A DNA stretch of 63,935 nucleotides, the filler included, from Rozella allomycis CSF55 (lineage: Eukaryota): NCBI GenBank assembly GCA_000442015.1. It is 5 parts of 5 records of this genome, joined end to end, with 100 filler letters (N's around TTAATTAATTAA, not from the genome) between each part and the next. Parts side by side here need not be neighbours in the genome. Positions count along the whole stretch, not along the records: positions 31,913 to 58,511 come from KE560403.1; 4 more parts are not named here. The stretch is one strand, 5' to 3'. The notes beneath the pieces were generated by a model that did not search any database, was not told where the DNA came from, and worked only from the letters and a program-made list of their open reading frames with translations. The stretch's first letter is position 1; each line of letters opens with the position of its first letter. Positions 20,001-62,931 of the stretch are shown here, one piece after another. Made by a program: the position numbers and the translations under genes.

Positions 20001-22540
20001 TAAATTCTTCTTCTTCAATAAACGCCTTTTAATCCACTTTAATTATTTTACTCGGCTAGTTTTCAATGTTTCATCCAACAATTGATTCATTGGGAAATCA
20101 TGCATCGCCATCATAAATGTTTCAAGCGCTTTCTTTCTTTTATCAATTCTAACAGACAGATTTATTTTAATATTTTCATTCTTAAATTTTACATAAACAT
20201 CTTTCTAATCATTCAAAACAATAGTTTACCTTGAATTTCTTCCCTCCTACAAGTTTCGTAAATTTCCAAAATAAAATGCTTAATAAAATTCATCAATTCA
20301 TAATTGGTTGATAATCCTTTATTCAATTCTATCAAATTAACAAACTTATCAACAAAGAATGTACAATCTTCAACAAAATGTGAACATGAATTGGAAATTA
20401 ATGAAATTGCAAACCTTTGTGCCTTTTTTATTCCAAGCGAACTAGCCTTTTCCAAATACAAATCCAATTCTTTGTTTAAAACAATTGCAATCTTTTCATG
20501 AATCAAACTATCTCTCATTCTAAATGTTTTATATTCAAATAGACAATCAAAATCACACTGTTTTAATTTATTTTGAAAATGAACACTCAAACATGTACAA
20601 ATAAGTGCAGATCTCTTTTCTTCATTAGAAACTTTTAATAAAGAATCAATAGACAGAATTGGATGCGATGAAATGTTTAATAAACTTAAATGCTCAATGT
20701 TAATGTTTGGACTATTCTCTGTCATACTAGAAAACGCGTCTTCATCAAAATCATTCAAATGGCCTTCATTCAAAATTCCAAGCCAAACACAATTCATCCA
20801 AATCTCTGTAAACATTTCAGAATATTCTTTAATTATCTTTTCTTCTTTTATTTCTTCTTTAATAAATTTATTAAAAGTATTTATAAACTCTGAAAAGATT
20901 GAAATTAAAGATGAAACGTATTCAAACTTGAAATCTGCATTCATTCTCGTTTCATGCAGAATTTGAAGAAATCTTTGAATAAAACTTTTCCCAATTTCAT
21001 ATTTAACATTCTTTAAAATATTTCCTTCATTTATTAATTCAATCAAACATTTATTCGTTGTACAAAATTCAGCTTCTTTTGTTTTAACAACATTCTTCAT
21101 CAAATGTTCAAATAAAATCTTCATTGAATCTTCACTTAAATTATTAAAAAATAACTTTAATCTTTTGGAAAATATCGTTTGAATAAAGTTATCATTCAAA
21201 CAAAGCAATCTATTCAAAAATGAAACATAACTTTCATTTCCCTTTCTATCTTTATTAAATTCTAAAAGATAACAAAACAGTAACGTCAAAATTCCAATCT
21301 TCATTCTCCCTTCATAAACTACTTCGTCTTCATCTTGATCTTCAAAACAAATCACACTAAAAACTTTGCCAATAATTATTTCCTTTTCTTTCGATTTGTT
21401 AATAATCTTAAATAAAATTCTAGCACTCAATTCTATTAATTCATCTGTCTGAAAAGGAAACGTTTCAAATACATTTGACATTTCTTTTATAAACGAACAC
21501 AAATAGTTTATTGCTTCCTCCTCCTTCTCATCACTATCAAAATAAATCATCAAAATAAAGCCCTTTAATGATTCAACCAAATCTTCATTATCCACTGAAA
21601 ATACAAATTGAAAATCATTCTTCATTTTTTCAAACACTTTGCTTCTTTTTATACTTGCACATATTCCACAACACTTTAAAAGAATCGGTACTGCTTTTGA
21701 ATATTCCTTGAAATTATAATCTTCTCCAGCAAATGTCTTTTCCTTGATATGCAAAATTATCTTTTCAAAGTTTAATATAAACTCTGCAACCTTCATCGGC
21801 ACCTTGATTCCAGCATCCACAAATTCCTCAGCATTAGCCACCCCACAGTACGAAAACGTCAATTCATAAAACATGTTCAATCCACAATGCACAAAATCCA
21901 CAAAAGAGTCTCTCTCCAATACATCAACCAACTCCACATTCTCAAACGTCTTTATCATATCAACCACAATCCCAAAATTACACTCGCTCACCCTATTCCT
22001 CTTCACACAAGTACTCATCCCATCCACAAACTCAATTAAAACATCAACCGCATATTTCTCACCCGCCTTCAGCACATCCACATAAAACTCAAACAACTCC
22101 ACCACCGCATCACACTTCTCCAGCTTGTAACACGTCTCTATAAAACACCTCATAATCAGCCCAATAAAAGAATCACAGTCTGTATACTGTATCTTGACAA
22201 AATGCCGGCACAGAAACGAACAGTACTCATTCACCTTGTGCAGGTACATTTCGTTGGACATTTTTATCGCAGCATCGGCAACCTTTTCTAGTATTATACC
22301 GTCAAACGACGTCTAGTTAAGGAGAGAGTTGTTTGTTACTAGTGTGATCACCGCTTTTTCAAAATTGATTTCCGGAAGCATCGAGAATAGCCGCACTATT
22401 GTTTCCGGATTGTCGCTCTTTAATGAGTCCACAAAGGATTTTAGGACGGATGTTGAGGGAAGAAAGGACAAATTTCGCATACCTGAAATTTCAAAATGTG
22501 ATGCGTTAAATTTAGACACAATTGGTGTTCCATTATACAT
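17099..22540 (-). CDS. STT4: Phosphatidylinositol 4-kinase III alpha (Stt4)
   Basis: LFFIPQIVQALR (PIK helical domain), LQSHAKAPF, AIFKVGDDCRQDVLALQ, IKDRHNGNIM, HIDFGF, FESAPFKLT and C-terminal NGIPYK. Long helical N-terminus. Confidence 0.95.
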
Positions 22541-23491: not shown

Positions 23492-24180
23492 ATGAATGCA
23501 CACACGACGGATTTATATACTCCAGTAACTTTTAAATAATCTATAAACGAGGTCCCGACAAGTGAAATCCCCGAAACATCCACGCACCAAGAAACCGCAC
23601 AACCTATGGCGCCCACTTCCAAAGACGCAGTATTTGTAAATATTCCAGCGAAGCCAAGTCCCGAAAACTCAGTAAAGCTTGATGCCACTGGAGAGATACC
23701 ACCAGTAAGCATAAATTTGGTTGTTAATGTAGACTTATGAATCAGTGGCTACAGATGCTGTTCCACCTTATACAGAACCTACAATTAATATTAATTTAGT
23801 CTCTGAAGAAATGCGAGGTAATATTTGTTGTGTTGTTTGATCAAGATCTTGTTGATGGCTATCCAGTCGGACATCCAGTGACGTTTCTAGTGTCATTTTT
23901 CATATCAGTGTTTTTCCAGACAATTGGATTTGTAATGTCTTTTGTTATGGCATCTGACCATTCAGGCCGCTTTGGATCATTAGCTGGGTTTGGGTTGAAT
24001 TTGGTGTTGATGGTTGTAAGTGATTACAAAAGCTTTTTTGGTGATGATAATGCCATGATATTCTTGAATTCTTTTATTGGTATATTTGGATTACTGATTA
24101 TGGTGTTTTCTATTCGCAGATATATTTCTATGAGGAAACTCGTTTGCAATCCGGTTTCGCCACAAGCTGAAAATGTCTAG
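23492..24180 (+). CDS. Bsd2/NDFIP-like Nedd4-family adaptor (PY motifs + 3 TM)
   Basis: AVFVNIPAKP, PPTYE...AVPPY, DGYPVG...FQTIGFV...GSLAGFGL; 3 tiny introns. Confidence 0.8.
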
Positions 24181-24401
24181 TAAAAAGTTATTCGATCTGT
24201 TCACAATAACGGGTCATAGTTATGTTGCATAAATAAATCGCCCTAGTCTTTTATAGTAAATGCTACAAGTTAGATCTAAAGTTTCATTTTTATTAAGCAT
24301 CGTTGATATCATTAAATTAGCATAGCTATGCGTATACAAAATTAATTAATTCTTTCAAAGTTTGAAAGACCAATTATCCAATTAAACCCTGGTCAAAATC
24401 A

Positions 24402-27400
24402 ATGACTGAACTTTCCTTTCAAGGACGTGTAGCAATTATCACTGGCGCAGGCGGTGGTCTCGGCCGCACCTACGCGCACCTGCTAGCATCTCGTGGAGCG
24501 AGCATTGTCGTGAATGATTTGGGGGTGACTCGCAGCGGGTCAGGGCACTCATCCAATGCAGCGGATGTTGTAGTTTCTGAAATTGTGAAGAATGGGGGCA
24601 AGGCTGTTGCAAACTATGATTCTGTTGAGGATGGCGACAAGATTGTTGCGTGTGCATTGAAAGCGTTTGGGAGGATTGATATAGTGATTAACAATGCGGG
24701 GTAAGAGGATGGGATGTTTGGGAGTAGGATATTGAGAGACAAGAGTTTTGCCAAGATGAGTGATGAGGACTGGGATCTGGTGTATCGTGTGCATGTGAGG
24801 GGCAGTTATAAGGTGACCAAGGCTGCGTGGCCGCATTTGATGAAGCAAAAGTATGGGAGGTATGGTTGATGGGTGGTTGTTAGTAGGATTATAATGACGT
24901 CGAGTGCCGCTGGGATTTATGGGAACTATGGGCAAGCTAATTATAGTGCGGGTAGGTGTTGTTTGGAGGTTTTATTGTAGCTAAAGCGGCGTTGGCTAGT
25001 TTTGGGTTTACATTGGCGAGAGAGGGGGCACGAAATAATGTTTATACGAATATTATTGCACCGTTGGCGGCATCGAGGATGACTGAGAGTGTGTTGCCGC
25101 CTGAGTTGCTAGCTGCATTGAAGCCTGAATTTGTGGCGCCAGTTGTTGGATGGCTGTGTCATGAGAAGAGTGAGGAGAATGGAGGGTTGTTTGAGTTGGG
25201 AGCGGGGTATGTTGGCAAGTTGAGATGGGAGAGAAGCAAAGGGGTGCTGTTGAAGACTGATGAGAGTTTGACGCCTGCAGCTGTTGGCGCCAAGATTGAA
25301 GAGGCTATGAATTTTAAGAATGTGGAGTATCCAACTGCGATAACTGATACTGATTGGGTAGGATTGGCGGAAAAGGCCAGGGAATTGAAGAGGAATGAGA
25401 GTAGGGAGGATATGAGGTTTGATGGAAGAGTGGTGATTGTTACTGGAGCAGGAGCGGGTATTGGCAGATGTTATGCATTGATGTTTGGAAGATTGGGAGC
25501 AAGTGTTGTGGTGAATGATTTGGGCGTGAGTACAACAGGACAGGGAAGCAGTTCAAGAGCTGCAGATAAAGTTGTTGAAGAGATTAAAGGCTTTGGTGGA
25601 AAGGCTGTAGCTAATTATGATTCAGTTGAAGAAGGGGAGAAGATTGTTGATACGGCAATTAAATCGTTTGGAAGGGTTGATGTTGTCATTAATAATGCTG
25701 GGATATTGAGAGACAAGAGTTTTATGAGGATGAGTGATGAAGATTGGGATTTGGTGCAAAGAGTGCATGTGAGAGGTAGTTTTAAAGTGGCTAAAGCGGC
25801 ATGGCCATTTATGATTAAGCAAAAGTATGGAAGAATAGTGAATACAGCATCAGCGGTTGGATTATATGGAAATTTTGGACAAGCTAATTACAGTGCGGGT
25901 AAAGTGGAGTTTATTTATATATTTAATAGCAAAGTTGGCGTTGGTTGGGATGAGTAACACTTTGGCGCAAGAAGGAAGTAGATTTAATATTAAAGTGAAT
26001 ACTGTGGCACCAAATGCAGGTACCAGAATGACAGGTAAAGAATTTTAAAGAAGATTAATAGCAACGATATTGCCACCAGAGATAGTGGAAGCATTGAAGC
26101 CTGATTTTGTAGCGCCGTTTGTTGGATATTTAGCCAATGAAAAGAATGAAGTTAGTGGAGGTGTGTTTGAAGTTGGATCAGGATGGATATCAAGAGTTAG
26201 ATGGCAGAGAAGCAGGGGAGTAGCATTTCCCATAAGGAATGGATTTAGTATTGAGCAAGTTGCATCCAAGTGGAAAGAGATTGTTGATTTTAAGAGTGTT
26301 GATTATCCAACTAATCCAACTGAGTCTCTTTCAATGATGATATCAAGTGTAGAGAATGTTAACAAACCAAGTGACAAGACTGATGATAAAGCAATTGATA
26401 AGACTACTGTTAAGAGTGTGAATGTGGAAGAGATAAGAAAAGTAGAGTTGCCAATATTTGATTATAAATTGAATCAAGAGATTGTTATTTTGTATAATTT
26501 GAGTGTTGGAGCTAAAAGAAAAGATTTAAAGTATACGTTTGAGTTGTCTGATGGATTTTCAGCTGTTCCTTCAATTGGAGTGATACCAGGGTTTCTGTCA
26601 TCGTTTAGTGTTCCATTGGATAAATATTTACCACCGTTTAATCCAATGATGTTATTGCATGGAGAACAATATTTAGAAATTGTTGGGAATGTTCCAATTA
26701 AAGGAGAAATGAAATCTCAATCTAAAATAGTTGATGTTGTTGATAAAGGGAAAGCAACAGCAGTGTTAATAAAGACAATAACAAAAGATGAGAATGGAAA
26801 TGTTTTATTTGTTAGTGAATCTACTAGTTATATTTTAGGCTTAACAAAATTAAATGTTGGAAAGAAATGGTCAGTTGAAAGACCATCAGCTGCAATATCT
26901 GATAATCATCCACCTAATCGTTCACCTGATTTTGTTTCAAAGGATTTTATTCCAGAAACACAAGCAGATTTGTATCGTTTATTAGTTGATAAGAATCCAC
27001 TTCATGTTGATCCCTTAATGTCTTCTTTAGCTGGATTTGATCAACCTATTTTGCATGGGTTGTGTACATTTGGTTATTCAACTAGAATGATTCTTGAAGC
27101 GTTTAATTTAAATTCAAATCAAATTAAATCAATCAAAGTTAGATTCAATAAACATGTTTTCCCTGGTGAAACAATTCAAACTGAAATGTGGAAAGTTGAA
27201 AATAAAATCATCTTTCAAGTCAAAGTCTTGGAAAGAAATGTGTTCGCTATAACAAATGCTGCTATTGAATTAAAAGATTCTTCTTTTCCAAAATTAATTG
27301 CTTCTTTTTCTTCTTTCAAATCAATTCCCTTGTTAAAAAGTTTAAAGTTAAATTCTGATTTAGCCAAAGTAAGTTTATCTTTCTATTTCAACTAGTTGAA

Positions 27401-27674
27401 GTCTTCTTTTCAATTTGATGTTATTGATAATTATGGATGTGTGTTTCCTGTTAGTCTTATTCTTAAATCAAATCCTTGTTTTAGTTTATCTCAAGTTAAC
27501 AACCCTGATTTAACCATTCGTGTTTACGATGATGACTTTGTTGATCTCCTTACTGGTAAATATTCCCCTCAAATTGCCCTCTTCAATTCTAAAATTAAAT
27601 TAACCGGTGATTTCACCGCCATTGCTAAATTGGAAAAAGTATTCAAAGTGTTAAAGAATACTGCCAAGCTTTAA
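24402..27674 (+). CDS. FOX2: Peroxisomal multifunctional beta-oxidation enzyme type 2 (2x SDR + hydratase 2 + SCP2)
   Basis: Two TGAGxGxGR...NNAGILRD...GQANYSAAK domains, [21 protein letters not shown]...ILHGLCTFG, an SCP2-like tail and C-terminal AKL (PTS1). Confidence 0.95.
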
Positions 27675-31812: not shown

Positions 31813-31912
31813 NNNNNNNNNNNNNNNNNNNNNNNNNNNNNNNNNNNNNNNNNNNNTTAATTAATTAANNNNNNNNNNNNNNNNNNNNNNNNNNNNNNNN
31901 NNNNNNNNNNNN
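31813..31912. other. Artificial contig-joining spacer (N44-TTAATTAATTAA-N44)
   Basis: 100-nt spacer with an all-frame stop linker, repeated identically four times in the window. Confidence 0.97.
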
Positions 31913-33634
31913 TCAACTTTTTGTTCTTCATTCTTTTTCGTCTTCTAAATTAATTCAATTAATATACATTACTTTAGATTTCTTGACTTTTTCGATTGGG
32001 ACTTCATTTGTTTCTTGGTTTTTAAGGTTGCGCTTTGAACGTTTCCTGATTTCTTTCGGTGCCTTATCAGAGTCTTTTAAAACTTCTTCATTAACAACCA
32101 CACTTGTTATTTCTTTTGGCTTTAGTCTTTCAATTTGTTCCAATTTGCCAGCTTCGTCATTTTCATCAATTTTGTCTTCAAGATCTTTCTTGCTTTCAGT
32201 ACCCTCAGACTCTTCAGGGGGCGGTGAAAAAGATAATCTTTCTCTTTTATGCAACTCTTGTTTTCTAAAACTCGAGGGCTCTTCGCCTAATTCTCTTTTT
32301 TCATGCTTTTGCAAGGTCAATATCAAATAATTTTCAATCAAATTTACAAAATCTTGTCTCTTTTCGAAGTTTACGCCATTTACAATGCAATCATTGCGGA
32401 TCCACACCTATTAAATACAATAATCCTACTTACCCTAGTATCATCACCTTCATCGGACGACCAATAAAGCTCATATGCTCTATATTGTAATCCAAAGCTA
32501 GGATTTCCCTTTCCAAACATAAGCCTATGGTCAATTATGCTCAAGTTTCGAACATGCTTTGGGATCGTCAATTGTTCCACCACCGTTTCTTTTTCAAATC
32601 CAGGCAAACTATTCGGAAATTGGGCAGCTTGATTCAACAAAATTTTCTTCCTGGAATAAGTCAATACTATATATTTACATTCTTTTCACATCGTTTACAC
32701 TTCTGTTGTGAAATTTTAACGTTTCGTCTCGATATATGGATCTATGACAATAATTATGCTGTTAAACAATTTTTTTGTATTTTACTCTTATTAAACCAGT
32801 TATCAAGTTTTCTATCTCATACAGAGTCCAACAACGGTCTGGGAATTCCATGTGTTTACAAAATTGAACAAGGGTGAAAATCCTAACCCTAATTTTTCAA
32901 AACTTAAAAATAGGTTGCAAAAAGTATTTTATTAGCTAGACGGTTATTATTTCGTCCGCTGGAATAGCTATGTTTTGCCTTTGTTATTAAATGGATAAAA
33001 TATACTTTAAGTTTTTCAAGTATTCGTCAAAGCTAGCAACATTCATGCCGTTAATATCTCTAATTTCAGAGAGTACATGCAAAATCTACCTTAATGCCGT
33101 AATTAAAATATGTGTTGATGAAACATCTTTTAGCCAGTATTCATACAAAAGTTCTTTCCAGTTACCATATTTTTCCTGTAACTCCTCAAGTGACAATAAT
33201 TCCACACAACGACCATTGTGATCATCTTCTCCGATTGGATCAGCATTAATCACTAAAACTTCATACTAACAAAATTCAAAGGCATCGTTACCAAGGAATT
33301 ACCATTGCACTGTAATATACAGGCTGCAACTGATTGTGTTTTAGGCTTCATTCCAATTATTGTCGACAACATATCAGCGTAATCTGGAATACCTTCAAGA
33401 TATTGCTTTTTCAAAACACGAAATCAATAAAATGTTTGGGATTAATATTTACCTGTCTTTTAAATCAACGTTTGTTCGCCTAACATGAAAATTGTACTTG
33501 ATATCATCTCCAATCTTTCTCCAGTTACCAACACCATGCTAAACATTTAAATTTAAAAAATTTACCTCCATAATACCATGGATCAAATCTTCTGTCTCCT
33601 TTTGAGACCAAGGGACCTTTGGTCGTTTTGTCAT
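31913..33634 (-). CDS. Telobox/TRF-like Myb protein with two Myb repeats and a possible chromo-like region; 3' end lost in gap
   Basis: Repeat 1: KVPWSQKETEDLIHGIMEHGVGNWRKI...RTNVDLKDRFRVLKK. Repeat 2: RCWTLYEIENLITGLIRHNY...KFHNRSVNDVKR. Splicing near 32880-32945 could not be resolved. Confidence 0.65.
33425..33452 (-). other. Candidate non-canonical GT-TG intron (28 nt)
   Basis: GTAAAT...TTATTG removal restores LKDR-FRVLKK in frame. The next AG, 19 nt downstream, gives a frame that hits a stop. Confidence 0.7.
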
Positions 33635-33784
33635 AGTGGCGCAGATATCAACAATGCTCTTCTAGACTCCCGTATACTAAGTGTACGTGCACTGGCTTTA
33701 TTATTGATACATAGAACTGTTTAGATTGTCAGAATGGCATAATTGAATTTATTACGAAATTCATGTGGCTGGAATCATTTAGAT

Positions 33785-35116
33785 ATGGACAATACTAGTA
33801 CACAAAGACTTGAAATAGAGGCAAGGGATAATACCGACCCAGAGAAAGATTATAAAGAGAACTTGAGATTTTTTTGCATTCAAGTTAAAAATCTATTTAA
33901 GCCTCTCCTAATTACGTTTTGTTTAGTATCTTGGTTTTCATTAACTACAATTGACGAGAAAAGTAGTAATTTATCACCGTAAACTTTTAAACATTATTTA
34001 AATCAAGAACTTTGGTTTATAAGCAGTCATCCGGTGATTCGACTTCAACCATTTTGGGTGGGTCCTTAATCAATGCATTGATAGTATTAGGTTCGATTGT
34101 TGGGATGACTCTTTTATTTGTGCTATGTTATGTTCTCAAATTATACAAAGTAAGGATTTTCAATTACTTAGAGCAGTTAATATATGCATGGCTCGGCCTT
34201 TCAACGTCAATGATTCTCGGAGGCACCGGAGGATTGACTTTCTATGGTATAATAAGATATTACAATATCGCCATGGATTATGTAACGTTCTTTTTCTGCT
34301 TGTGGAACTTTGTAGCAGTCGGATTGTTATGCATATATTATCATGCGCCGTTATATATTCAGCAATCCTATTTAGTGGTAGTTTCTGCATTACTTGCAAC
34401 AAACATGGCACGCTTGCCGGAATGGACAGCATGGTGCGTGGTGAGCGTAGTATCTATTTACGGTAAACAATAGTATTTGTAATTGTAAGACCTTTTCGCT
34501 GTCCTTTGCCCAAAGGGTCCTCTGAAAATGCTTATTAATACCGCAGAAGAAAGAAATGAAGCTCTTCCTGGTTTATTATATTCTGTGGGAATGGCAGATA
34601 CGTCAAAATCAATGAAAGCAGCACCTGGAGTTTATCAAGTTCAAGTAGGTATCGATGATTTAGAAAACAAAAATTCTTTCGAGATTGTTGATAATATAAC
34701 CTCTCCTGAAGTTGAAACAGATGACACTATNGGCATCACCTGGAGTATATCAAGTTCAAGTAGGTATTGATGATTTAGAAAACAAAAATTCTTTTGAGAT
34801 TGTTGATAATATAACCTCTCCTGAAGTTGAAACAGATGACACTATTAGAGACGGAGTGAAATTGGGGCTCGGGGACTTTATCTTTTACAGCGTAATCATT
34901 GCGAGAGCAGCCATGCTTGACTGGATTTCATTTGTTACTTGTTCAATATCTCTTTTGACTGGACTTTGCGGAACTCTATTACTATTGATGGTATACGAAA
35001 AAGCACTTCCTGCTTTACCTATATCGATTGCTCTTGGCTTGATATCTTACTTTACCTCTCGCTACTTAGTTATTCCATATATTGTATTTTTAAATAAAAA
35101 TGGATTAGTTATTTAG
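33785..35116 (+). CDS. PSEN: Presenilin (gamma-secretase catalytic subunit, A22A)
   Basis: [20 protein letters not shown] (split by an intron), [11 protein letters not shown] and ALPALPISI; both catalytic aspartates are present. Confidence 0.95.
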
Positions 35117-35274
35117 TGATATTTGATTTAAGGAGGATAATTGACAAATTATCACGAGCACATTTTTTTGTAACCTTTACAACATTCAACAGAAATATTG
35201 TACTTTATTTCGAATTAATTTTCTTGTGTTAATTTCCTAATGAAGGAATTTTCACTTCGACAATTTCAGGTCTA

Positions 35275-35909
35275 ATGATTCATGTATGTCTTGGTACGAT
35301 TGTAATCAATTTCAGGAAAGGAATGCCCAATCTATTGATAGCTAACAAAAAAATAATTCGTGATATTGGGAATATTTTCGGCATTTTGGGATGTGATGTT
35401 AATAAGTGGCATGTGAATATAACATTTGTTGGAAATGCTTACATGAAAATGCTTAACAGAACATACGCGGAAAAAAACAGGGCCACAGATTCGCTCGCTT
35501 TCCCCTATATTCAAGTAAAATGAATTATAGACACATTTGAGGTCCACAAATTTGAGACTTTGATGCATAATCCTATTTCTGAAGATCCTAATCAATCAAT
35601 ATTGGGAGACATATATGTTTCTTTGCCATATATAAAAGCCTACTGTCAAAGATATGGACGAGATTTTAACCGAGTACTACTGAAGACTATAATACATAGC
35701 GCGACCCATTTAATGGGTTTTGATCATTTAAATTAAATCAAAGAGATTTAATACAGGTAATGATACTAAGCGTTAATAATTTGATGAAACGAGTAGAGAG
35801 AAAGGCAAGAAAGAAACTTTTTGAAGTCATCGAGATCACACCAAAAACTGTTTATAGACCTCAATATATTCGTTATTTCGGAAAGACAAAGATTTTTAAG
35901 TCGCTTTGA
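35275..35909 (+). CDS. YBEY: YbeY endoribonuclease, with an apparent frameshift just after the metal-binding motif
   Basis: LNRTYAEKNRATDSLAFP, LGDIYVS and IHSATHLMGFDH (H-x3-H-x5-H). A TTAAA duplication at 35728-35737 gives an immediate stop; the downstream frame continues ...MKRVE. Confidence 0.8.
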
Positions 35910-36058
35910 ACACCATGAATGATGGAACACCTATCAGCTTTCTTGAACAAATAAAAACTTGATGACTTTTTGAACAAACAAATAGAGACTTGATGATTTT
36001 TCGTTTTGTATTTCTTTTCTTACTTCCGATTTCAAAACATAAACAAAAACAAAAACAA

Positions 36059-36528
36059 ATGCCAAAATCAAAAACCGCAAACACTAGAACTAGGACATCA
36101 TTTTCTTTGGAACAAAAATTGGACTTGCAAGAATCTTTCGCTAAAAATCATAATTTAAGCCGCAGCGAAATTCAAAGACTAGCGCTAAAAACTAATTTAG
36201 AGCCCAAGGTCATTCAGACATGGTAATATTAATAGATAGTATTAATAGGTTCCAGAATCAAAGAAGTCGACAGAAAAAGACAAAGCGCAGATATAATTGG
36301 CATATACTTCATCCCGAAGATATCAAGGACACAAATTTTAGTCATAATCTCATGTCTAATGAATGCCATGATTTCATATCGCAATTGTACGAGGAAATTA
36401 CTAGCAATGAAAATGAATATCCTACAGATATCCATTCAACTAAAGAGCTCCTTTGTAATGAAAATTTCAAATTAGATCATTGCATATATCGCGAATCAGA
36501 AAGTACGTCCAATTTATGGGGCTATTAA
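36059..36528 (+). CDS. Homeodomain transcription factor (non-TALE, Q50)
   Basis: RTRTSFSLEQ...LQESF...LALKTNLEPKVIQTW|FQNQRSRQKK across one 26-nt intron. Confidence 0.9.
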
Positions 36529-36596
36529 ACTGGGATCATTAGTCAATTAAAATTTTGATTTTTTGAAATAAATGAACATTTTATTTTTAATGGATA

Positions 36597-38966
36597 TTAA
36601 TTGACGGACCACTAAATAGTTGTTCATTACATTCATTACCTCCATTAAACAAGAGTCCATGCCACCAGCACTTAGTAATGTTTTACCGTCTTTTGTGAAG
36701 CGAACGTTTGTGACAAGAGCTGAATGTCGTTTATATTCTTGAAATAGCTTCTAAATTTTTATAGCTAAAGGCTTTTACTTGGTCTGCAGGAAAATTAAAA
36801 ATGCGTACAACCCCAAAGTCGTCTCCTGATGCAATGACCTTTTTTGATGTGTCTACATCGCAAGAGTTAATCTACATGAAATGAATTCAGCAAACTCTTT
36901 TACGTCGGTAGCATCCATTCCAGACTGCCAAATACCCTGAGTCGCCCAGCTTCTTGTACAAGTATTTGTCGCCCACGAAATATCCTTTAGTTCAGATAAT
37001 TTCTTTTCCTGGGTGCCACTGTCCAAGTTCCCTGATTGAAAAAAAACATTTGTGTAATACAATATAATACTTCACAATCGGTGCTATTTGATATTAGATA
37101 TTTTCCATTGGAGGAAAAGTCAACATGAATTACATGGCTAGTATGTCCCTAACTTTACAAACCAAAAATAGCGTAACTTGAAGGCTTGCTTTTAAGACAA
37201 ATGGCTGCTTTGACGAATCATATATATTAATCGCAAAATTTTTGGAACAAACCGCTAGTCGCGTACCGTCGGGTGAGAATTTAACTTCTGTTATAGGCGA
37301 GGTGCTATCCTTTATGGTAAATAATACGTCCAGTTTGTGCGAGTTAATGCATACTACCTATATTTAATAAATCATTGCCTTTTACTTGGCCATTATCCAG
37401 TCCTGCCGCTAAGATTACCCCTTTGTTATTGTATTCACAGCATTTCACTTTGGCATCAAACTTAGTAGAGTGAATCATTGTATGAGAAACAGTATTCCAA
37501 GTTCTGAGAGTACCATCATCAGAACATGATGCAAACGTGTTTTTGTCATCAGGGTTAACAGATAGTCCCCAGATTTCTTGAGCCTCAATGCCTCTATGCC
37601 CCTTTGTATCAAATATAACTTATTTCTTACATTCATAAACACTTTTGAGCTTCCAGTTTTATGATCAACTAATGAGAGAGTTGAGTCCTCGAAGCCTACA
37701 ACTAATTCAGAGCCCAAAAAGTCAAAGCTTCTCACAGCTTGCCTCTCCTTAATAGTCCCCACATTCTTTAAATCTATACAATTAATTTTTTCATATGTCA
37801 TGTTAAATGTATTGATTAGACAATCGCCTCCTCCTGTCAACAACATGTCTCCATGATAAAGGATGTTATGTACAGGTCCATCATGAGCAGGAATCGATTT
37901 AAATACTTTATGATCTTTCCAAATTAGTATGTTTCCAGACGTCGTTCCAGTGGCAACCATGGAATCAGTAATATGTGCGATGGAAAGTAAAGTCTAGTTT
38001 TCTGATGGCTTTAAATTTGTACAGATATTTTATTTTTATCCCCAAAAATACCATTTTTCCCGGACAACTCTTGATTTGTATCGTTAAACGACCAAAATTT
38101 GTATAACTTTTCACCAACAGTTATAAATTCATAATTACTTAGCGGATTGAATGCAACATTAAGAATTCTTTGGGAATGTCCATGTACTTTACATATTGGA
38201 TAACTATTTCTTTCCCAGTCATAAATAAAGATCTATCAAATATGAAATTGACCACCAGTACTGTATGATTGTCGTCATCTCCAACTGCAACTAAGTACTT
38301 TCCGCTTGGTGAAAATGTCAAAGAACATATTGCTCTAACTTTGTCTGTAGTTAAAATTTTGATTGTTGGAATAGATTGATCAACAACTTGAGATGCTTCG
38401 CTGTAAATATGAATAGATGGTTCTTCCCCGACTAACGTTAATTAATTTAATGATTAGATACCTTGACCAGAAGCAATTAGGCCTGATTCCGGATGATAAG
38501 CAATAGAAACAACATCATCAGTGTGATGTGTGTAGAATATCTGTTTCCTTTCTTTAATGTCCATGAAGACGACGCAACCCGCGGCCGGGTAAATAACTCT
38601 ATCACTTTTCTTTCTTGAAAAGAAAAGGTTATTTCTGCATTTCTTGATTCTGTATCCATATATATAGTTGAGATTTAATTTTTTCGCAACATGAGTGATA
38701 TTCTTTTGTTGTTTATAGTCATGCGGAGTAATTATTTCATGCTTCCACGTATCTTTTAAAGATATCTTGGGCTTGGATTCTTTTGGATTGTATTTTCTGG
38801 GACCGTGTTTTGCAACATGACCTGGGTCATCATCTGACGACTCGATCTCTTCGATTTCTGATGGCTCTAATTTTAAATCTTTTTCATTATTCTTTTTAAA
38901 TTTAGGTTCCTGAATTTTAGACGCTTGTTCCAAATCTGAACCAGAACAGGGTATACTAATGGGCAT
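36597..38966 (-). CDS. EML/EMAP-like microtubule-associated protein (HELP + WD40)
   Basis: LNLNYIYGYR..CRNNL, HTDDVVSIA, GHTSHVIHVDF, SWATQGIW, ASGDDFGVVRIF and HSALVTNVRF. Confidence 0.9.
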
Positions 38967-38973
38967 CTGTGTG

Positions 38974-38987
38974 GTTGCTAAGTAAAG
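38974..38987. promoter_or_regulatory. X-box/RFX-like motif upstream of EML-like gene
   Basis: GTTGCTAAGTAAAG, 7 nt from the ATG. Confidence 0.45.
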
Positions 38988-39006
38988 GAATATAATAATT
39001 TTGTGT

Positions 39007-40199
39007 TTAAACTGATTTATTTGGATCGTGTTTTCGCTTTCTATGATAACTTGATTTAATGTGAGCGTTCCATTCACTTAGACCAATAATAATTTTTTCA
39101 GGGCATTTAGGACAAAGATATCGTTTTACTTCCGTTTTGAGGATTTTTTGCATTTGAAGGGTAGGAACTCCACCGTTAAACCAAGTTTCCACACTCTCGT
39201 ACAACCTGGATGGATCGTCTAGGCTGAATTCATCAACTAGTATGTCCTTGTCCTGGCAATCTGGAATTAATTTATTCCTGAACCAGCTCTGTTGCTTTCT
39301 AGCGTATCTCTTTGTATTCACTTGAATTTTCTGTATGAGTTCTTCAAGATTATAGATTTTATTAAGGTAAGAAACAATTTCTCGAAAACCTTAAAAATTA
39401 TAGGAAGATAAGATACCAATGGACTGAAATATAGAGTCAGTAAAGTCAATGTCATTCTTGTCTATCTTGTTAGAATCTAAAAATCTTTCAACTTCTTCTA
39501 CAGCGCCGTTCTACATATTTATGACCGTCGCGTCTTACCTGAATCATAAATACTGCGCGTTTGTCAATTTTCAAATCCAAAATCTCTAAATCTCTTTTTA
39601 TAATGACAACCATCGCATTTGGATATCTAATTATCGTTTCGTCTTTACTATTTTTCTTTTTTGAAAGTCTCTTTCATCAAATTTATACCGTTTTACTTTT
39701 AAAGCACTTTTTATTTTCCTTTCATCATTCGGATGATACCTATCTGCCTCTTCAGGACACTTATTCTTCAACATTTCGTATAAATCATCATTATCACATT
39801 CAAAATTAAAAGATTCATTTGTTTCATTATCAGCTGTGTAATTATCAAATAGTAAACTCTGAATGTAATAATTTGTTCCCCCAACAACAATTGGAAGCTT
39901 ATTTTGTCCCAAAATTCCTTGAATCTTTTACAATGATGACTATAAGTTACTATTGAAACGACTCTATCTGTATATATTTTCACATTAAATTCAGAATTCC
40001 AAGCAATTTCATTAAACATGTGATGTGGAACGTTTTTCATTTCATCTGCAGAAATTTTGTTAGTTATGATAGATAAACCTTTCAAACACTGCATCGCATC
40101 TGCATTAATGATTTCTCCGTTATATTTTAAAGCAAGTTGAACTGCCAAGTCAGATTTGCCAGAGGCTGTTGGGCCGCAAATAAATAAAATCTTTGACAT
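39007..40199 (-). CDS. MOD5: tRNA dimethylallyltransferase (Mod5/TRIT1)
   Basis: GPTASGKS, INADAMQ, ITNK, PIVVGGTNYY, QSIGFRE, TKRYARKQ..W and a C-terminal zinc finger. Confidence 0.95.
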
Positions 40200-40276
40200 G
40201 TGGCTTGATCAGTGAAACTGCTGAAAACTAGGTTGAAATAAATTCAAGTTTTATTGATCATTTAAGATTAGTGGTG

Positions 40277-40285
40277 GTTGCCAAG
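40277..40285. promoter_or_regulatory. RFX half-site upstream of CCDC96
   Basis: GTTGCCAAG, 5 nt before the ATG. Confidence 0.45.
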
Positions 40286-40290
40286 TTGAG

Positions 40291-41937
40291 ATGGAAGAGC
40301 AGGATCCCGCAAACGTAAGGAAATATATGTGTTGAAAACGAGTCGAATCTTGTCGATTTGTCATCGGCAGAAATACCTATTCCTATTAAAAATCAAGAAG
40401 AAGTTCAAGAAGAAGTAAAGGAAGAAGATAATGAAATTGCACAATCAGAGCAAGATAAACATAATTCCGCTGAAACTAAACCACCCACAGGAATATCTAG
40501 CAATTTAGAATTACGTGATACAAATATATCCGTTTCAAAAACTGTATCAGAAGAAGACATTGATCATTTCCATAAAATGGCTTCATATGCAAAGGTTGAC
40601 CCTTCTAAGAGGGGATATGATTCATTCACTTTGAAAGAGGCATTGAATCAAGTATCTTCGCTGAATGATTTGGCGTCTCTTCCTTCATTGCAAGAATTGT
40701 ATAATCTAGTGCGTGCTAAATCTGCCAGTCAAATACAAAAAGAAAAGGAGGAGCAAGAAGTTGCAGAAAAGAAGATTAAAGAGGTTGAAGAGGAAAATAA
40801 TCGAAAGATGAAGATTGAAGAACAAGATAGATTGTTAAAGATGAGAGTTGACAAGGACGAGTTATTGAATCGATTCCAGACGCTTCTTGATAGGAGAGAC
40901 AAGGCGAAATTGAAGAATTCAAGTCTGCAGCATCGATTGGGTGAATATTTCAAGAGAAAACGGGTATTTTATTACAATCAAACACATGATAGGCTGATGA
41001 AAGTAATAGGGACTCTGATAGATCTGGGAGTGATTGGGACCAAAGATATGCCAATAATTTACAAACTCTTGCTGAGCTAAGGATAAAGTTTGATCAAATT
41101 GCATCATCAAACAATAAAGTTGTGGTCGATTTGAAACAGGAATTAGAAACTAAACGAGCGGAGACTGAAGGATATGAAAAAGATTTCTTAAGAGCGAGAA
41201 AGAATGCTCTTTGTTCTTCAGAAAACGGAAGAACTGGAAAAAAGTTGCCGCCAAAAGTAAATTGTAGTTTACGAAATTTAGGAGGTTATTGAAGCGTTAG
41301 AACTAGCGGATTCTAAAAAGACCCAAGAAGTTGTAGCAATAAGATTGGAATATATAAAATTAAAGAATAAAATCAAGAGACAGGAACAAATTTTGAAGCA
41401 AAGGGAGGATTTGGGAGAAGGATTGCATTTGATTGATTTTGAGCAATTGAAAATAGAAAATCAAGCCTACAATGAAAAAATTGAAGAGAGAAACGAAGTA
41501 AAATATTAAATGTATTACAAAAGGAAATACTAAAGCTTAAAAGAAAGATTACTGTGATTGTTCAAATATTAACTCACATTAAAGAAAAGTTGAATTATAT
41601 TGAAGGGGATAACGAACGTAGAAATGCAGACCTTCAAGTTCTTGATTCCAAAGCAAATGAATTGAAGGATCGTTTACCAATTTTAAAAATGAAGAGAGAT
41701 TCCTTAAGGGCGCACAACACTTTGCTCCGTCAAAAGAACGGCCTCCTTGGCAATAGAGATTTGTTAAGAGATTATGAAAACAAAAAAGACAATTGTGAGA
41801 AATTACAAAAGGATGTCAAGCAACTTAAAGATAATTACGAATTCTTAACAAGCAAGCATAATGAAGTGAAAAGACAAATTCAAAAGATTCAAATTAAACA
41901 CAGAGTTGGAAACTTTGGACTTCTTCAATCAGTCTAA
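40291..41937 (+). CDS. CCDC96: Ciliary coiled-coil protein CCDC96/CFAP184-like
   Basis: GEGLHLIDFEQLKIENQAYNEKIEERNEE, ILTHIKEKL and LLRDY. Confidence 0.88.
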
Positions 41938-41956
41938 AAATAAAACCTTTTCTTTA

Positions 41957-43419
41957 TTAAAGTTTTGATGAACCCTTCAATTTCTTAAACAAGGGTTCCA
42001 ATGTCATAGCTAACATCATGGCACCCTTAATCTTCAATTTTCCACTGGCAAAAGCCTTTTGTCCTTTTTAATTTGATATATTCGATATACCAGAAAGTTT
42101 CCCAGAATAAAGTGCCATAAAATCTTCATCTTTCAATGTAATTGAAATGTCAGGCTTTAGATCACCTGCGCCACGAAAGATCTTCCCACTCTTTTTCAAA
42201 TCTAAGATCCATTTATCTTCCTTTTCGTCTCCCTTAATAATAAATTCTAAAATTCCATTAATCTTTGCAAGTACAATTAAATTCTTTACAGATTTCATCA
42301 GAGATTTCTTTTCAAATTCATTCATTAAAGAGAACTGTTTCTCCATTTCATTAAAGGCTAAATTAGATTGTAGATCCACAGGTTTGGGTGACTTTATATC
42401 CTTTTTGTTTCTATTTGGCAATTCATGTTTATATCCCTCGTCAAGAAAGAAATCTGGAAGAAAATCTTTATTTCCAGGAGTTGTTGCATATTGTTCGAGG
42501 GGTATGCTTTCATTCTTTAACAATTCTTCATCAATTGCAAATATCCCCCTAAGTAATCAAGAAACTTCAATGTAATGTACGTGTAGGACGCAGGTTGGGA
42601 GAGAAGAATGTAAGCAGCATCAGCCATGATTTCAGGCTTACGTCCCTGTGTTCCCATTTGTTCCTTGTTGCCTATAGCTTGCAAAGCGGCGGTATCAATC
42701 ACAGTCTTCGGCCACAGTGCGTTTACAGCAATGTTCTTTCCATTTAACATATTAGATTTACGTATGACTTTAACTCTCCGGCTAAGCCTAAAACTAACAA
42801 AGACATTCCATATTTTGCAATGGAATAGGCTACATGAGGAGCGAACCATCCTATCTCGCATGTTCAACCATCTTACTTTCCGAAATGCACAGTGGCGGGG
42901 ATATCATTAGTATCTTTGGAGAGCTTGATTTTTTCAAATATGGAATGGCATGCTTTGACATTAAAAATGTACCTCTTAAATTGATTTGGTTCATCAAATC
43001 AAATTTCTTTGAGGTTGTTTCTTCTGTAGATGTTAGACTAATAGCACTTGCATTATTTATCAATATATCTATTCCACCAAATCTAAATCCATGCATTTAT
43101 TTATCATTTACCTTGCTACAGTTTTTTCAATTGCATTCTTTATTTGCTCCTCATCTCGAATATCACATTGAATCGGTAAAGCTTTGCCTCCAATCTTTTC
43201 GATTTCTTCAGCTGCAGAGTAAATTGTTCCTGGTAACTGTTCAAAGTAATTCCAATTCATTACTTTTGGGTTAGGATCAGCTGTTTTTGCTGCAATCGCA
43301 ATATTGGCACCTTCTTGAGCCAATCTTTTCTATATTAACGCAATTAATTACCTCAACGCTATGGCTTTTCCGATTCCTCTTGAAGCGCCAGTAATTAGAA
43401 CTGTCTTTCCCTTGAACAT
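41957..43419 (-). CDS. HSDL2: Hydroxysteroid dehydrogenase-like 2 (SDR + SCP2, peroxisomal)
   Basis: TGASRGIG, AAKTADPNPKLPGTI, NNASAI, YSIAKYGMS, RKPEIMADAA, SCP2 domain and C-terminal SKL. Confidence 0.93.
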
Positions 43420-43589
43420 TAAAATTGAGAATTTTCAAATGGATGAAATACACTTCTATGAAGGTCAAAATGTAATGGCGAAGAATTGTTTAAGTGTAAA
43501 TATGCTGAAAAAGGAAACTTAATGAATCTCTAAACCTCTACATTGACATTGTACAATATTTTTTCTAATATACATGGAACATATCATCT

Positions 43590-44536
43590 TTATTCATCAA
43601 CTTTGACATACATATTCGGCTTAGAAAACTTGGCAATATCCTGTTCAAGGGCCTTTAGTTGGTTTTCAATACCTACTTTTCTATTTATTACTCGCCCAAA
43701 TAATCATTACCGGTTAATTTTTGGGATGGTATCTACAGTCAAGGATAACTTCTGGTAATCGGTGTTAAGTTTGTTCAATTTCGCCTGAAGCCCAGCAAGA
43801 ATGCTCAAACGCTCTTCTTCAGGGAGTAACTGGTATTGCTTATTTTCATTAGCCAGAGCTTCTTCTCTTTGTCTCTGCACTTCTTCATTATGTCTTTCTT
43901 CTTTTCTTTTATCCAAGTATTTGGGATTCTTCCCATAATCTTTCTTGGTCAAATAACTGTATGGTTCCTTGGGGACTTTCTGTGGAGCTTAATATGTATA
44001 AATAAAATCTTATACTTGAATTGATTATATTAACTGCATTTGTGGTGACAAAGTCCATGCTAGTCGGCTTTGGAATTACTGGACTCTCCTTCTTTGACGG
44101 AACGCTAGGACGAAGTCCTTTATCAGCATAATGAAACTCTTTCGCTAGTTTGACAAACAAACTGAACATTTACGTTGAGGTAATCGTGGCTCTTTGGAAT
44201 GCTTTTTGAGAAATTCCTTTGGTGGGNTTTTAACAAACAAATTGAACATTTACGTGGAGGTAATCGTGGCTCTTTGGAATGCTTTTTGAGAAATTCCTTT
44301 GGTGGGTTAACCTTAACTTTGACAGGTCCCATTGACGCTGCTGGTTTAGTTCCCGTTGTATATTCGCTTTTGGCCATATTGGAGAAGATTGATTTGTACA
44401 AAGGTGGATGTGGTTTTTCTGGTACCACTTCGGGTATAAGACGATAAACTGATTCTTGAAATGGGTCATCTAACACCGATGAAGAATTGGTATATTTTTC
44501 AGCTTTAACTGGATCTCTTGGAATAACAATTGTCAT
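43590..44536 (-). CDS. ENKUR: Enkurin (flagellar microtubule inner protein)
   Basis: ESVYRLIP...YKSIF, MGPVKV...PKEFLKKH, DFVTTNA, KDYGKNPKYL and EERLSILAGL. Confidence 0.9.
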
Positions 44537-44539
44537 TGT

Positions 44540-44556
44540 GTTTCTTAGTTACCATG
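44540..44556. promoter_or_regulatory. X-box/RFX-like motif upstream of enkurin
   Basis: GTTTCTTAGTTAC overlapping GTTACCATG, 3 nt from the ATG. Confidence 0.5.
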
Positions 44557-44694
44557 CATTCAAACATTGCTCTTAAGGAGTTAAACTGATGTCACAGTTT
44601 AATTAGACCTTCTTAATTCGCTCGAGACTTTCTCAGATGAGTTTCGAATCAAGAAACATCATTTAGAATTTTACCTACATTCCAAGTTCCAAGA

Positions 44695-46413
44695 ATGGCA
44701 TTTTTCGCATTCGCCCTGAAGTTGGTGAAGCATTCACCTTGTTTTATTTATTGCGATTCTCAAAATATTTCAAAGCCAATACATGAGAATAGACCATTTG
44801 TTATCAAGAAACTACGATTTGCAGATGTTATTCCTAAAAGGCCACAGAATTTCACCCTATTTAAAAGATGCATTAGGCTAGCAGCATTTTTTATTCCTTT
44901 GTTAATATCTTACCCATTNGGAATTTCACCCTATTTAAAAGGTGCATTAGGCTAGCAGCATTTTTTATTCCTTTGTTAATATCTTACCCATTCTTTAAGC
45001 CTTGTAAAATAGTTTGGTACAAATGGTTCAAATGGACCCTTAGCAGGAACGGTGCATGCTTTATAAAGTTGGGTCAATGGCTGTAAAATATATAATATAT
45101 GGAAAAAGAGCAACACAGACTAGTATTGTTGGTAAAGACTTTGCTCGTATTTTATGTGACCTTCACGATTCTGCTTATGTTCATATCATGGATGAGAAAG
45201 CAATTCTTGGAATAAAGGGGTTAATCAATGTTGCAGTAAAACCGATTGGAGCAGGATGCATCGCTCAGGTAACATAATCTATTGAAATGTATAGGTTCAC
45301 AAGGGTGTGTGGAATGCTGATGGTGTTTTGCAAGAAGTTGCTGTAAAAATCAGACATCCGAAAGTGTACGAAAATGTAGTTTGCGATCTCACTATTATAT
45401 ATGAAGCATTCAAAATACTAGAGAAATTGCCAATAATCCAATCAATTCTCAGAAAGGAGCAGATTCTTGTTTTTGGCAAGTCAATGATGGAGCAAATAGA
45501 TTTGCGCAACGAGGCTGCTCATATGAATATTTTTAGAGAAAATTTTAGGAAAGAAAAGGATGTTAGTTTTCCTCGAATCTTGTACTGTGACAAGTCAACT
45601 ATTGTCGAGTCATTTGAACCCGGCACATCGTTAATGCAGTTAAAAGAACATTTGGACGAAGAAGCAAAAGAGAAGATTGTTTTCAAGACGTTAAAGGCCT
45701 TTATCAAGATGTCTATTGTTGATAATTTCACGCATGGTGATCTGCACCCGGGAAATATTCTAATACGCTTCCAGCTGAAACGAGCAAAGAAGTTTTGGAA
45801 CCGCTTTTGGGATGTAAAATCAATACCATTTTTCGATTTCTGTGGAGAAATGGATGCAATGCCGCTTCCTTTTGCTAAACCAAGATTACAAGAAACTTTA
45901 GAGTCACCAAAAGAAATAGAAACAGGACTTGAAAAGTACCCAAAGGACTATGAACCATGCCTTGTAATTTTAGACACCGGCCTAGTGACAAGACTCGAGC
46001 AAGAGCAATACACCAATCTTCTCCTACTCTTTTATTCCCTGATCCTAGAAAAGAATTCCGAAAACGCAGCCAATTTAATCCTGCGCCAAGCGCATCAGGG
46101 CGACTGCCCGAACATCAGCCATTTCCTTGTCGAGATGCCGATTCTGATTGACAGACATTTGAGAAACGGTGCTGTTCCCGATATGACTGATATTCTCGGC
46201 GAGGTTGTGTCGATTGTGAGGAAGAGCGGGGTGGTATTGGACGACAAGTTTTTGGGACTGTTGATTGGGTATCTGGTGCTGCAGTGGGTGGGAACGGATA
46301 TTGCGCGGGGTGTTGATGTCAAGGATGTTGCGAGGAGTGTGCATGATGAGTATCTTTGTAATCATAAGCCTTGGATTAAGATTATTGAAGAAAAGTATTC
46401 ACAAAAATTGTAA
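44695..46413 (+). CDS. ABC1/UbiB atypical kinase (ADCK2-like)
   Basis: FIKLGQW, PIGAGCIAQVH, VAVKIRHP, QIDLRNEA, HGDLHPGNI and LDTGL. Confidence 0.9.
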
Positions 46414-46549
46414 AGTTAATATTAATGTATTAGAATATAAAATTTATTTAATTATTTAAATTTTCAAATCTTTTTACATTCTTCTGCATTCTCTATCCAT
46501 CTTGCAACTTACTCTGTCAGTGGCTTGAGCAACCCCTGCAATAATTTTT

Positions 46550-58511: not shown

Positions 58512-58611
58512 NNNNNNNNNNNNNNNNNNNNNNNNNNNNNNNNNNNNNNNNNNNNTTAATTAATTAANNNNNNNNNNNNNNNNNNNNNNNNNNNNNNNNN
58601 NNNNNNNNNNN
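58512..58611. other. Artificial contig-joining spacer
   Basis: N-TTAATTAATTAA-N, 100 nt. Confidence 0.97.
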
Positions 58612-59678: not shown

Positions 59679-59706
59679 GAAATTAGGAATTTCTTAAAAA
59701 ACTGTT

Positions 59707-60246: not shown

Positions 60247-60346
60247 NNNNNNNNNNNNNNNNNNNNNNNNNNNNNNNNNNNNNNNNNNNNTTAATTAATT
60301 AANNNNNNNNNNNNNNNNNNNNNNNNNNNNNNNNNNNNNNNNNNNN
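60247..60346. other. Artificial contig-joining spacer
   Basis: N-TTAATTAATTAA-N, 100 nt. Confidence 0.97.
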
Positions 60347-62831: not shown

Positions 62832-62931
62832 NNNNNNNNNNNNNNNNNNNNNNNNNNNNNNNNNNNNNNNNNNNNTTAATTAATTAANNNNNNNNNNNNN
62901 NNNNNNNNNNNNNNNNNNNNNNNNNNNNNNN
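62832..62931. other. Artificial contig-joining spacer
   Basis: N-TTAATTAATTAA-N, 100 nt. Confidence 0.97.

Follow-up and report, generated by a model that had tools for sequence, protein, structure and literature searches.

Few rules of eukaryotic gene structure are as firm as the one that U2-type introns end in AG, and the TG acceptors that are known are rare and dependent on a neighboring AG. Can a TG be the only productive acceptor of an intron? The question is raised by a Myb gene on the minus strand of a stretch of the Rozella allomycis CSF55 genome (assembly GCA_000442015.1), referred to below as the window, which comprises 63,935 nucleotides (nt) including filler. Within this gene, a segment of 28 nt (33452..33425, minus strand) has a strong GT donor and no AG at its end, and it separates the two halves of the recognition helix of the first Myb domain. 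Our analysis indicates that this segment is probably a genuine U2-type spliceosomal intron ending in UG, ligation at which would yield a complete first Myb domain. The original prediction, made from the sequence alone, went further and proposed a non-AG 3' splice-site system with a recurrent class of such introns.

The gene is laid out as follows, in the direction of transcription. P0001 and P0002 are Rozella allomycis CSF55 database proteins that represent two public models of it.

33566..33634, minus strand: exon 1, with the start codon at 33634-33632; it encodes the first 23 residues, including Myb helix 1, and equals the N-termini of P0001 and P0002.
33539..33565, minus strand: intron 1, 27 nt, GTAAAT...TTTAG, canonical and spliced out in P0001 and P0002 alike.
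33453..33538, minus strand: exon 2, encoding the second Myb helix and the first half of the third, and ending with VDLKD and the AG of a split Arg codon.
33425..33452, minus strand: candidate intron 2, 28 nt, GTAAAT...TTATTG, phase 2, with no internal AG.
33292..33424, minus strand: exon 3, whose first base, A, completes AGA (Arg), followed by FRVLKKQY...
33406..33424, minus strand: segment of 19 nt from the TG to the first downstream AG, coding if the TG is used and intronic in the 47-nt and 64-nt GT-AG readings.
33266..33291, minus strand: intron 3, 26 nt, GTAACG...GTTAG, in agreement with P0001.
33090..33265, minus strand: exon 4, 100% identical to P0001 and P0002.
33060..33089, minus strand: intron 4, 30 nt, GTAGAT...ATTAG, in agreement with P0002, with another exon beyond it.
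32650..32851 (limits approximate), minus strand: a second, weaker Myb-like repeat (about 15 bits), which P0001 and P0002 connect via a long intron.

Exon 2 closes with GAT TTA AAA GAC AG, its last base being 33453, and the segment that follows begins with GTAAAT and finishes with TTTTATTG. Both this exon end and the TAA that read-through meets immediately had been described in the original prediction and are seen on the minus strand. Excising exactly 28 nt, so that exon 3 begins at 33424, rejoins both halves of the Myb recognition helix as DLKD-R-FRVLKKQY in the exon-3 frame, again reproducing what had been claimed. In place of the AG that ends a U2-type intron there is a TTG, and the next AG lies 19 nt downstream. 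The acceptor cannot lie further upstream, because a TGA overlapping the TG closes the exon-3 frame directly upstream. The donor context, CAG/GTAAAT, scores 6.87, which is higher than in all 128 predicted introns and puts it ahead of 99.98% of the window's 5864 GT sites.

The search for a canonical alternative covered every single deletion of 15-120 nt that has GT-AG, GC-AG or AT-AC ends and starts between 33497 and 33424. Three of these 63 deletions (79, 64 and 107 nt) are free of stops. The 79-nt and 64-nt deletions keep the exon-3 frame and remove the entire second half of the Myb domain, while the 107-nt deletion is out of the exon-3 frame. Splicing from the strong donor to the first AG beyond it would remove 47 nt, up to 33406, and throw the reading out of frame, with a stop after 16 codons, so that the stop expected for the nearest AG is indeed there. 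Thus, the Myb helix cannot be completed by any single intron with canonical ends. The public models reflect this constraint in different ways: P0002 has an intron of 64 nt (donor 33469, acceptor 33406), and P0001 has introns of 41 and 47 nt with a 4-nt micro-exon between them. Both use GT-AG introns only and both lose helix 3. Exons 1 and 2 extend to position 36 of the 46 positions of the Pfam Myb domain (PF00249), compared with positions 1-28 covered by P0001 and 1-30 by P0002.

The candidate products were compared with homologous Myb domains. Scanned in full with P0002, 1.84 billion representatives yielded 39 relatives besides P0001, all of them fungal proteins with ...VDLKDR(F/Y)RT... in the first Myb repeat; the alignments are limited to the first ~56 residues. 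A motif of the D-L-K-D-R-(F/Y)-R type occurs in 28 of the 39 homologue segments. The profile built from them used 35 homologues, omitting P0013, P0026, P0027 and P0033, which look truncated or seem to have another architecture; re-adding these four leaves the ranking of the candidate products unchanged. The scores were as follows.

TG-spliced product: 82.3 bits with 35 homologues (profile positions 5-61 of 76, through helix 3) and 83.4 bits with all 39.
First-AG product: 72.9 bits with 35 homologues and 74.2 bits with all 39.
P0002: 55.5 bits with 35 homologues and 59.1 bits with all 39.
P0001: 43.2 bits with 35 homologues and 45.6 bits with all 39.

The same result emerged from an unbiased deletion test. 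Deleting 0-90 nt around the site in every way that keeps the frame and avoids a stop gives 665 variants and 403 distinct proteins, of which the 400 with the highest scores were inspected. The top two among them, at 84.9 and 84.8 bits against the 35-homologue profile, are both 28-nt deletions at this site; the former has implausible AA..TT ends, and the latter can be drawn as GT..TG.

Some of the homologues also bear on the age of the intron. In six of the 39 (P0011, P0014, P0022, P0030, P0035 and P0040), similarity is lost directly after DLKDR, where the sequence continues with Y or C and then V, and two of them (P0030 and P0040) pick up again with (S/R)FRT further along. Because Y/C-V is the translation expected when an unrecognized intron is read through an AG/GT junction in the same codon phase, these six proteins look like mis-annotations in other fungal genomes, with the intron retained as coding sequence. 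This pattern suggests that the intron position is old and common to other fungi. The scan returned no full-length orthologue of the Myb protein among the 1.84 billion representatives, only Myb-domain matches. The Rozella protein resembles the 39 two-repeat fungal Myb proteins in the helix-3 motif of the N-terminal repeat and in having a Myb-like repeat downstream, but it can be aligned with them over the first ~56 residues only. Proteins with two Myb repeats and VDLKDRFRT are presumably Tay1/Teb1-like telomere-repeat binders, a name that was given by no tool.

A TG at this position would mean little if the underlying base were wrong, and the original prediction had called for a check of the DNA for TG versus AG. 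We compared read contigs with the window over 31913-51900, a span that ends short of the NUP93 site at 56983 discussed below. One contig (run X1, word depth 631) spans 31913-34616 and differs from the window only at 34282 and 34538; a second, from a different sample and study (run X4, word depth 397), spans 31913-34254 with zero differences. These main contigs show TG and no AG allele. A third contig (X5) covers the Myb site at a depth of 9 with 12 differences and 8 gaps whose positions were not located, and the run labeled X7 has almost no coverage there. No RNA run appeared among the runs matching the window, and the single RNA run on offer shared almost none of its sequence words. We conclude that the TG is real DNA and not an assembly error.

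The segment also resembles the other introns of the window. An ad hoc gene finder that accepts AG acceptors only predicted 148 introns in genes scoring at least 15. Of these, 135 are 24-33 nt long, with a mode at 27 nt (40 introns) and 28 nt in third place (23 introns). Among 40 high-confidence GT-AG introns (GTA donor, at least 40 open codons in the flanks), 17 are likewise 27 nt long. The 28-nt Myb segment lies inside this 24-33 nt peak, as is expected of a U2-type intron of this genome; the claim that it has the modal length holds to that extent, the mode in the window itself being 27 nt. The last three bases of 128 predicted introns are TAG in 71, AAG in 36, CAG in 13 and GAG in 8, so that a T ahead of the last two bases is usual, as it is in TTG. 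Beyond a GTAA start and an (A/T)-T-A-G close, intron positions are near background, and a motif search of the predicted introns found neither a branch-site motif nor a pyrimidine signal.

These features suggest how a TG could come to be used. With introns of ~27 nt that hold scarcely any internal signal, the 3' site would probably be set chiefly by its distance from the 5' site or the branch. If no AG lay within reach, a UG, in which the terminal G is retained, could then be ligated at that distance.

The original prediction had named two further candidates, in the genes for NUP93 and YbeY. They fared differently.

56983-57009, plus strand: NUP93/Nic96 candidate GT..TG intron, 27 nt, GTAAGA...AATTTG, following ...DYLWLQ, with an in-frame TGA.
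35757-35783, plus strand: YbeY candidate GT..TG intron, 27 nt, GTAATG...AATTTG, in frame and stop-free; a weak case.

In NUP93, the first AG occurs only at 57051, 42 nt downstream of the TG. The JGI model (P0003) takes out 56983-57051, a GT-AG intron of 69 nt, and thereby loses 14 residues. These include T-Y-D-L-K-M-L-Q, which aligns with (S/R)-Y-(G/S)-L-x-(E/D)-(L/F)-Q in the Chaetomium and yeast Nic96 proteins; Cladosporium Nic96 has a similar stretch, and the pattern Y-x-L-x-x-L-Q is shared across the three fungi. Pfam splits P0003 into two stretches near the junction and finds a single stretch in the read-through protein. Retaining the 14 conserved residues requires a non-AG acceptor, and among the in-frame options the 27-nt intron ending in TG has the modal length. 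We regard NUP93 as a reasonable and fairly well supported second case, tempered by the fact that the length of the read-through protein fits the homologues too. For that reason an intron is forced only by the TGA, which is present in the window and implied in the JGI assembly. A metagenome scan with P0003 found no relatives. Elsewhere in the same gene, at 56581-56607 on the plus strand, there is a 27-nt GTAAGT...TTTAAG intron, in frame and stop-free, where P0003 excises 54 nt instead; the Cladosporium homologue has a gap of exactly 9 residues there, matching the 27-nt intron. This over-removal by P0003 indicates that the deposited models are not transcript-grade.

The YbeY candidate proves little, being in frame without a stop and lying behind a duplication that shifts the frame. 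A tandem duplication of TTAAA (5 nt) at 35725-35735 on the plus strand shifts the frame after the catalytic H-x-x-x-H-x-x-G-x-x-H motif, and the candidate follows it. In a minor X1 contig (depth 246 of 2091), 5 nt are absent at 35728, and the frame would thereby be restored; this difference reflects either allelic variation or a bubble in the assembly. The JGI YbeY model keeps the 27 nt as coding sequence and drops the catalytic His motif. With the 27 nt taken out, the spacing would presumably match that of bacterial YbeY.

Several results weigh against a UG acceptor at the Myb site or against its recurrence. The strong donor is unspecific, since 20 of the 62 GT sites scoring at least 5.5 are not followed by an AG at a distance of 22-34 nt, and several lie in plainly coding sequence. 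A recent AG-to-TG mutation would produce identical coding-like flanks. Human TG acceptors occur solely as alternatives to an AG and are never the only acceptor (PMC2374985). In NUP93, the read-through protein is also a fit in length, with 16 residues separating the conserved blocks compared with 17 in the homologues. The DNA runs carry two organism labels, with the four best runs under one label, so that they do not attest the TG in a second isolate or species. A tally of acceptors behind GTA donors (25-31 nt, flanks of at least 30 codons; n = 321) gave AG 57, AA 36, AT 34, TT 32, TA 24, GA 20 and TG 19. Neither the open reading frame (ORF) tallies nor a coding-potential filter showed an excess of TG over other dinucleotides in the window, with low power and few cases; tallies based on ORFs alone are drowned out by antisense ORFs and echoes of genuine introns. 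When the gene finder was given each of the 15 non-AG dinucleotides in turn, 3-14 introns were gained every time, and TG (10 introns, +17.9) had no lead over TT (13, +22.7) or AA (10, +17.8). Nor was the Myb 28-nt intron chosen when TG was allowed. We rejected the gene finder as a test of TG, because it placed matches in plain coding sequence (ABC1 at 45132, WD40 at 36686 and 37133, SCP2 at 27556). Altogether, the window of 64 kb holds two reasonable cases and one weak case of GT-TG against ~135 predicted introns of canonical length. GT-TG introns may form a recurrent class, a proposal to which we would give slightly less than even confidence. The inference of a UG acceptor at the Myb site stands on the best homologue fit, the absence of any canonical completion, the length and the real DNA; the terms "system" and "recurrent class" go beyond these results.

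Three other explanations of the Myb locus were considered. A recent A-to-T change could have destroyed a normal AG acceptor, leaving the next AG (33406-33407, 47 nt) or retention of the intron, with a frameshift and no working helix 3, in a gene that is dying or dispensable in this strain. Coding-like flanks are what one would expect shortly after such a mutation, the first-AG product does meet a stop, obligate parasites are generally known to tolerate gene loss, and the human record just cited points in the same direction. Yet the remainder of the Myb gene shows no decay, with three canonical introns of 26-30 nt and open exons, and the X1 and X4 main contigs hold no AG allele. NUP93, a member of a core nuclear-pore scaffold family, has the same TTG at the modal distance, which would call for two independent events, both of them A-to-T among six possible single-base changes. 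We consider a crippled acceptor unlikely, although it is the main alternative. A plain error in the sequence or assembly, with a true base A and a normal TAG acceptor, is far less credible still and very improbable. The window is a rough draft, with single Ns beside duplicated overlaps and with linker cassettes, and the X1 and X4 contigs leave out 80 nt at one of the single Ns and 74 nt at another. Across the Myb site, however, these two contigs agree with the window even though they come from separate samples and studies. Moreover, both public models, which derive from different contigs, avoid the 28-nt intron, as would be expected only if the AG were missing there too.

It is also conceivable that the public models are correct, and that the gene uses GT-AG introns only (64 nt at 33469-33406, or 41 nt, a 4-nt micro-exon and 47 nt) and encodes a truncated first Myb repeat. 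P0001 and P0002 were deposited in this form, both keep the exon-3 frame, and our AG-only gene finder recovers the solution with 41 and 47 nt. On the other hand, the two models are mutually inconsistent, rely on poor donors (GTTGAT and GTACAA) and on lengths far beyond the 24-33 nt peak, and throw away the most conserved motif of the family. The JGI model of NUP93 shows the same tendency in removing 54 nt where a 27-nt GT-AAG intron suits the homologues. We judge it quite improbable that either model is right. The reading that we favor, with some reserve, thus remains an intron of 28 nt spliced at UG.

How would such an intron compare with known systems? Ciliates have ultra-short, length-constrained introns that are described as GT-AG. 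The introns of the window are like these in their narrow length peak (27 nt here), their AT-richness and their near-absent branch and polypyrimidine signals; non-AG ends fall outside that description. U12-type introns tolerate varied 3' dinucleotides, but the donors GTAAATAT, GTAAGAAT and GTAATGAT (GTAAAT, GTAAGA and GTAATG) exclude this class, which has (A/G)TATCCTT. In yeast, UAG-to-UUG reporters and prp8 suppressors reportedly indicate that UUG is usable in the second step with reduced efficiency, the terminal G pairing with the first G of the intron. The yeast mutants are engineered and inefficient, whereas the Rozella site would be natural and the only path to a functional protein. GT-TG introns are also said to be mentioned in multi-species surveys. 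TG is known as the least unfavorable of the non-AG acceptors. A close parallel is found in humans, where TG acceptors of U2-type introns have been described in 36 genes, at ~0.02% of sites and always as alternatives beside an AG (Szafranski et al. 2007, PMC2374985). The human TG-AG tandem sites and the Rozella sites are alike in the GT donor, the U2-type context, ligation at the TG and retention of the terminal G. According to that article, TG is the one non-AG dinucleotide that recurs there, under a short distance constraint. In contrast, neither the Myb nor the NUP93 site has a TG beside a nearby functional AG: Rozella would have TG as its only productive acceptor, with the nearest AG 19 nt away in Myb, where its use destroys the frame, or 42 nt away in NUP93.

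For Rozella allomycis itself, PMC6349667 describes two putative ~30-nt introns in S23, which lack the splice-site and branch-point motifs conserved in E. cuniculi introns. The passages of PMC8476143 and PMC6349667 that were examined contain nothing on non-AG splicing in Rozella, and the words "intron" and "splic" are absent from PMC5701793. No account of non-AG splicing in Rozella emerged from our literature search, supplements aside.

The window otherwise encodes ordinary eukaryotic proteins, including Serinc, MFE-2 hydratase, ABC1 kinase, a protein kinase and Nic96. A ciliate genetic code was ruled out, as translation table 1 already yields ORFs of up to 1614 amino acids. A skew between G and C of ~0.44 in size at 20001-22000, 24001-26000 and 46001-48000 lies over long ORFs on the G-rich strand; these have ordinary composition and comprise the dehydrogenase part of MFE-2 and a helical-repeat-like ORF of 1614 amino acids. 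The skew reflects a bias of the coding strand rather than a repeat or an origin. Predicted genes on the minus strand are in places separated by 28 nt (59679-59706) and 11 nt (18344-18354) from a stop to the next start. These values are unvalidated gene-finder output, according to which the intergenic spacers there would be extremely short.

Several other observations concern the assembly. Single Ns stand between duplicated copies of 20-50 nt at 44227, 44919, 5868, 6962, 8301, 30771, 58035 and 63081, and look like contig ends that were joined with the overlap unmerged. The X1 and X4 contigs pass from 44176 to 44257 (80 nt skipped) and from 44845 to 44920 (74 nt skipped), which identifies these duplications as artefacts of the assembly that disrupt reading frames. 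At 31813-31912, 58512-58611, 60247-60346 and 62832-62931 lie four cassettes, each made up of N44, TTAATTAATTAA and N44. Because TTAATTAATTAA is a six-frame stop linker, the window concatenates separate contigs, and gene order across the cassettes is not established. Clusters of 4-7 base differences are shared among contigs from several runs, in some cases at partial depth, at 45723-45777, 46672-46717 and 48936-48985; two haplotypes or diverged copies of a repeat could account for them.

Finally, a UG acceptor would have consequences beyond one Myb gene. We propose, tentatively and with rather less confidence than for the Myb intron itself, that UG could be the constitutive 3' site in roughly 1-2% of the ~27-nt introns of Rozella allomycis, including those of core genes such as NUP93, through a distance-set second step that demands only a terminal G. 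GT-AG-only annotations would then be wrong genome-wide, through deleted conserved residues and invented micro-exons. If true, a sole productive TG acceptor, possibly at ~1-2% of introns, would extend in a new way what is known of these rare sites, and a basal fungal lineage, sister to microsporidia, would offer a natural system for second-step site choice, showing how far that choice relaxes once introns reach their physical minimum. It would also imply systematic errors in the deposited Rozella proteomes, such as a Myb protein without its DNA-reading helix and a NUP93 lacking 14 residues, in data that are in wide use for early-fungal phylogenomics.

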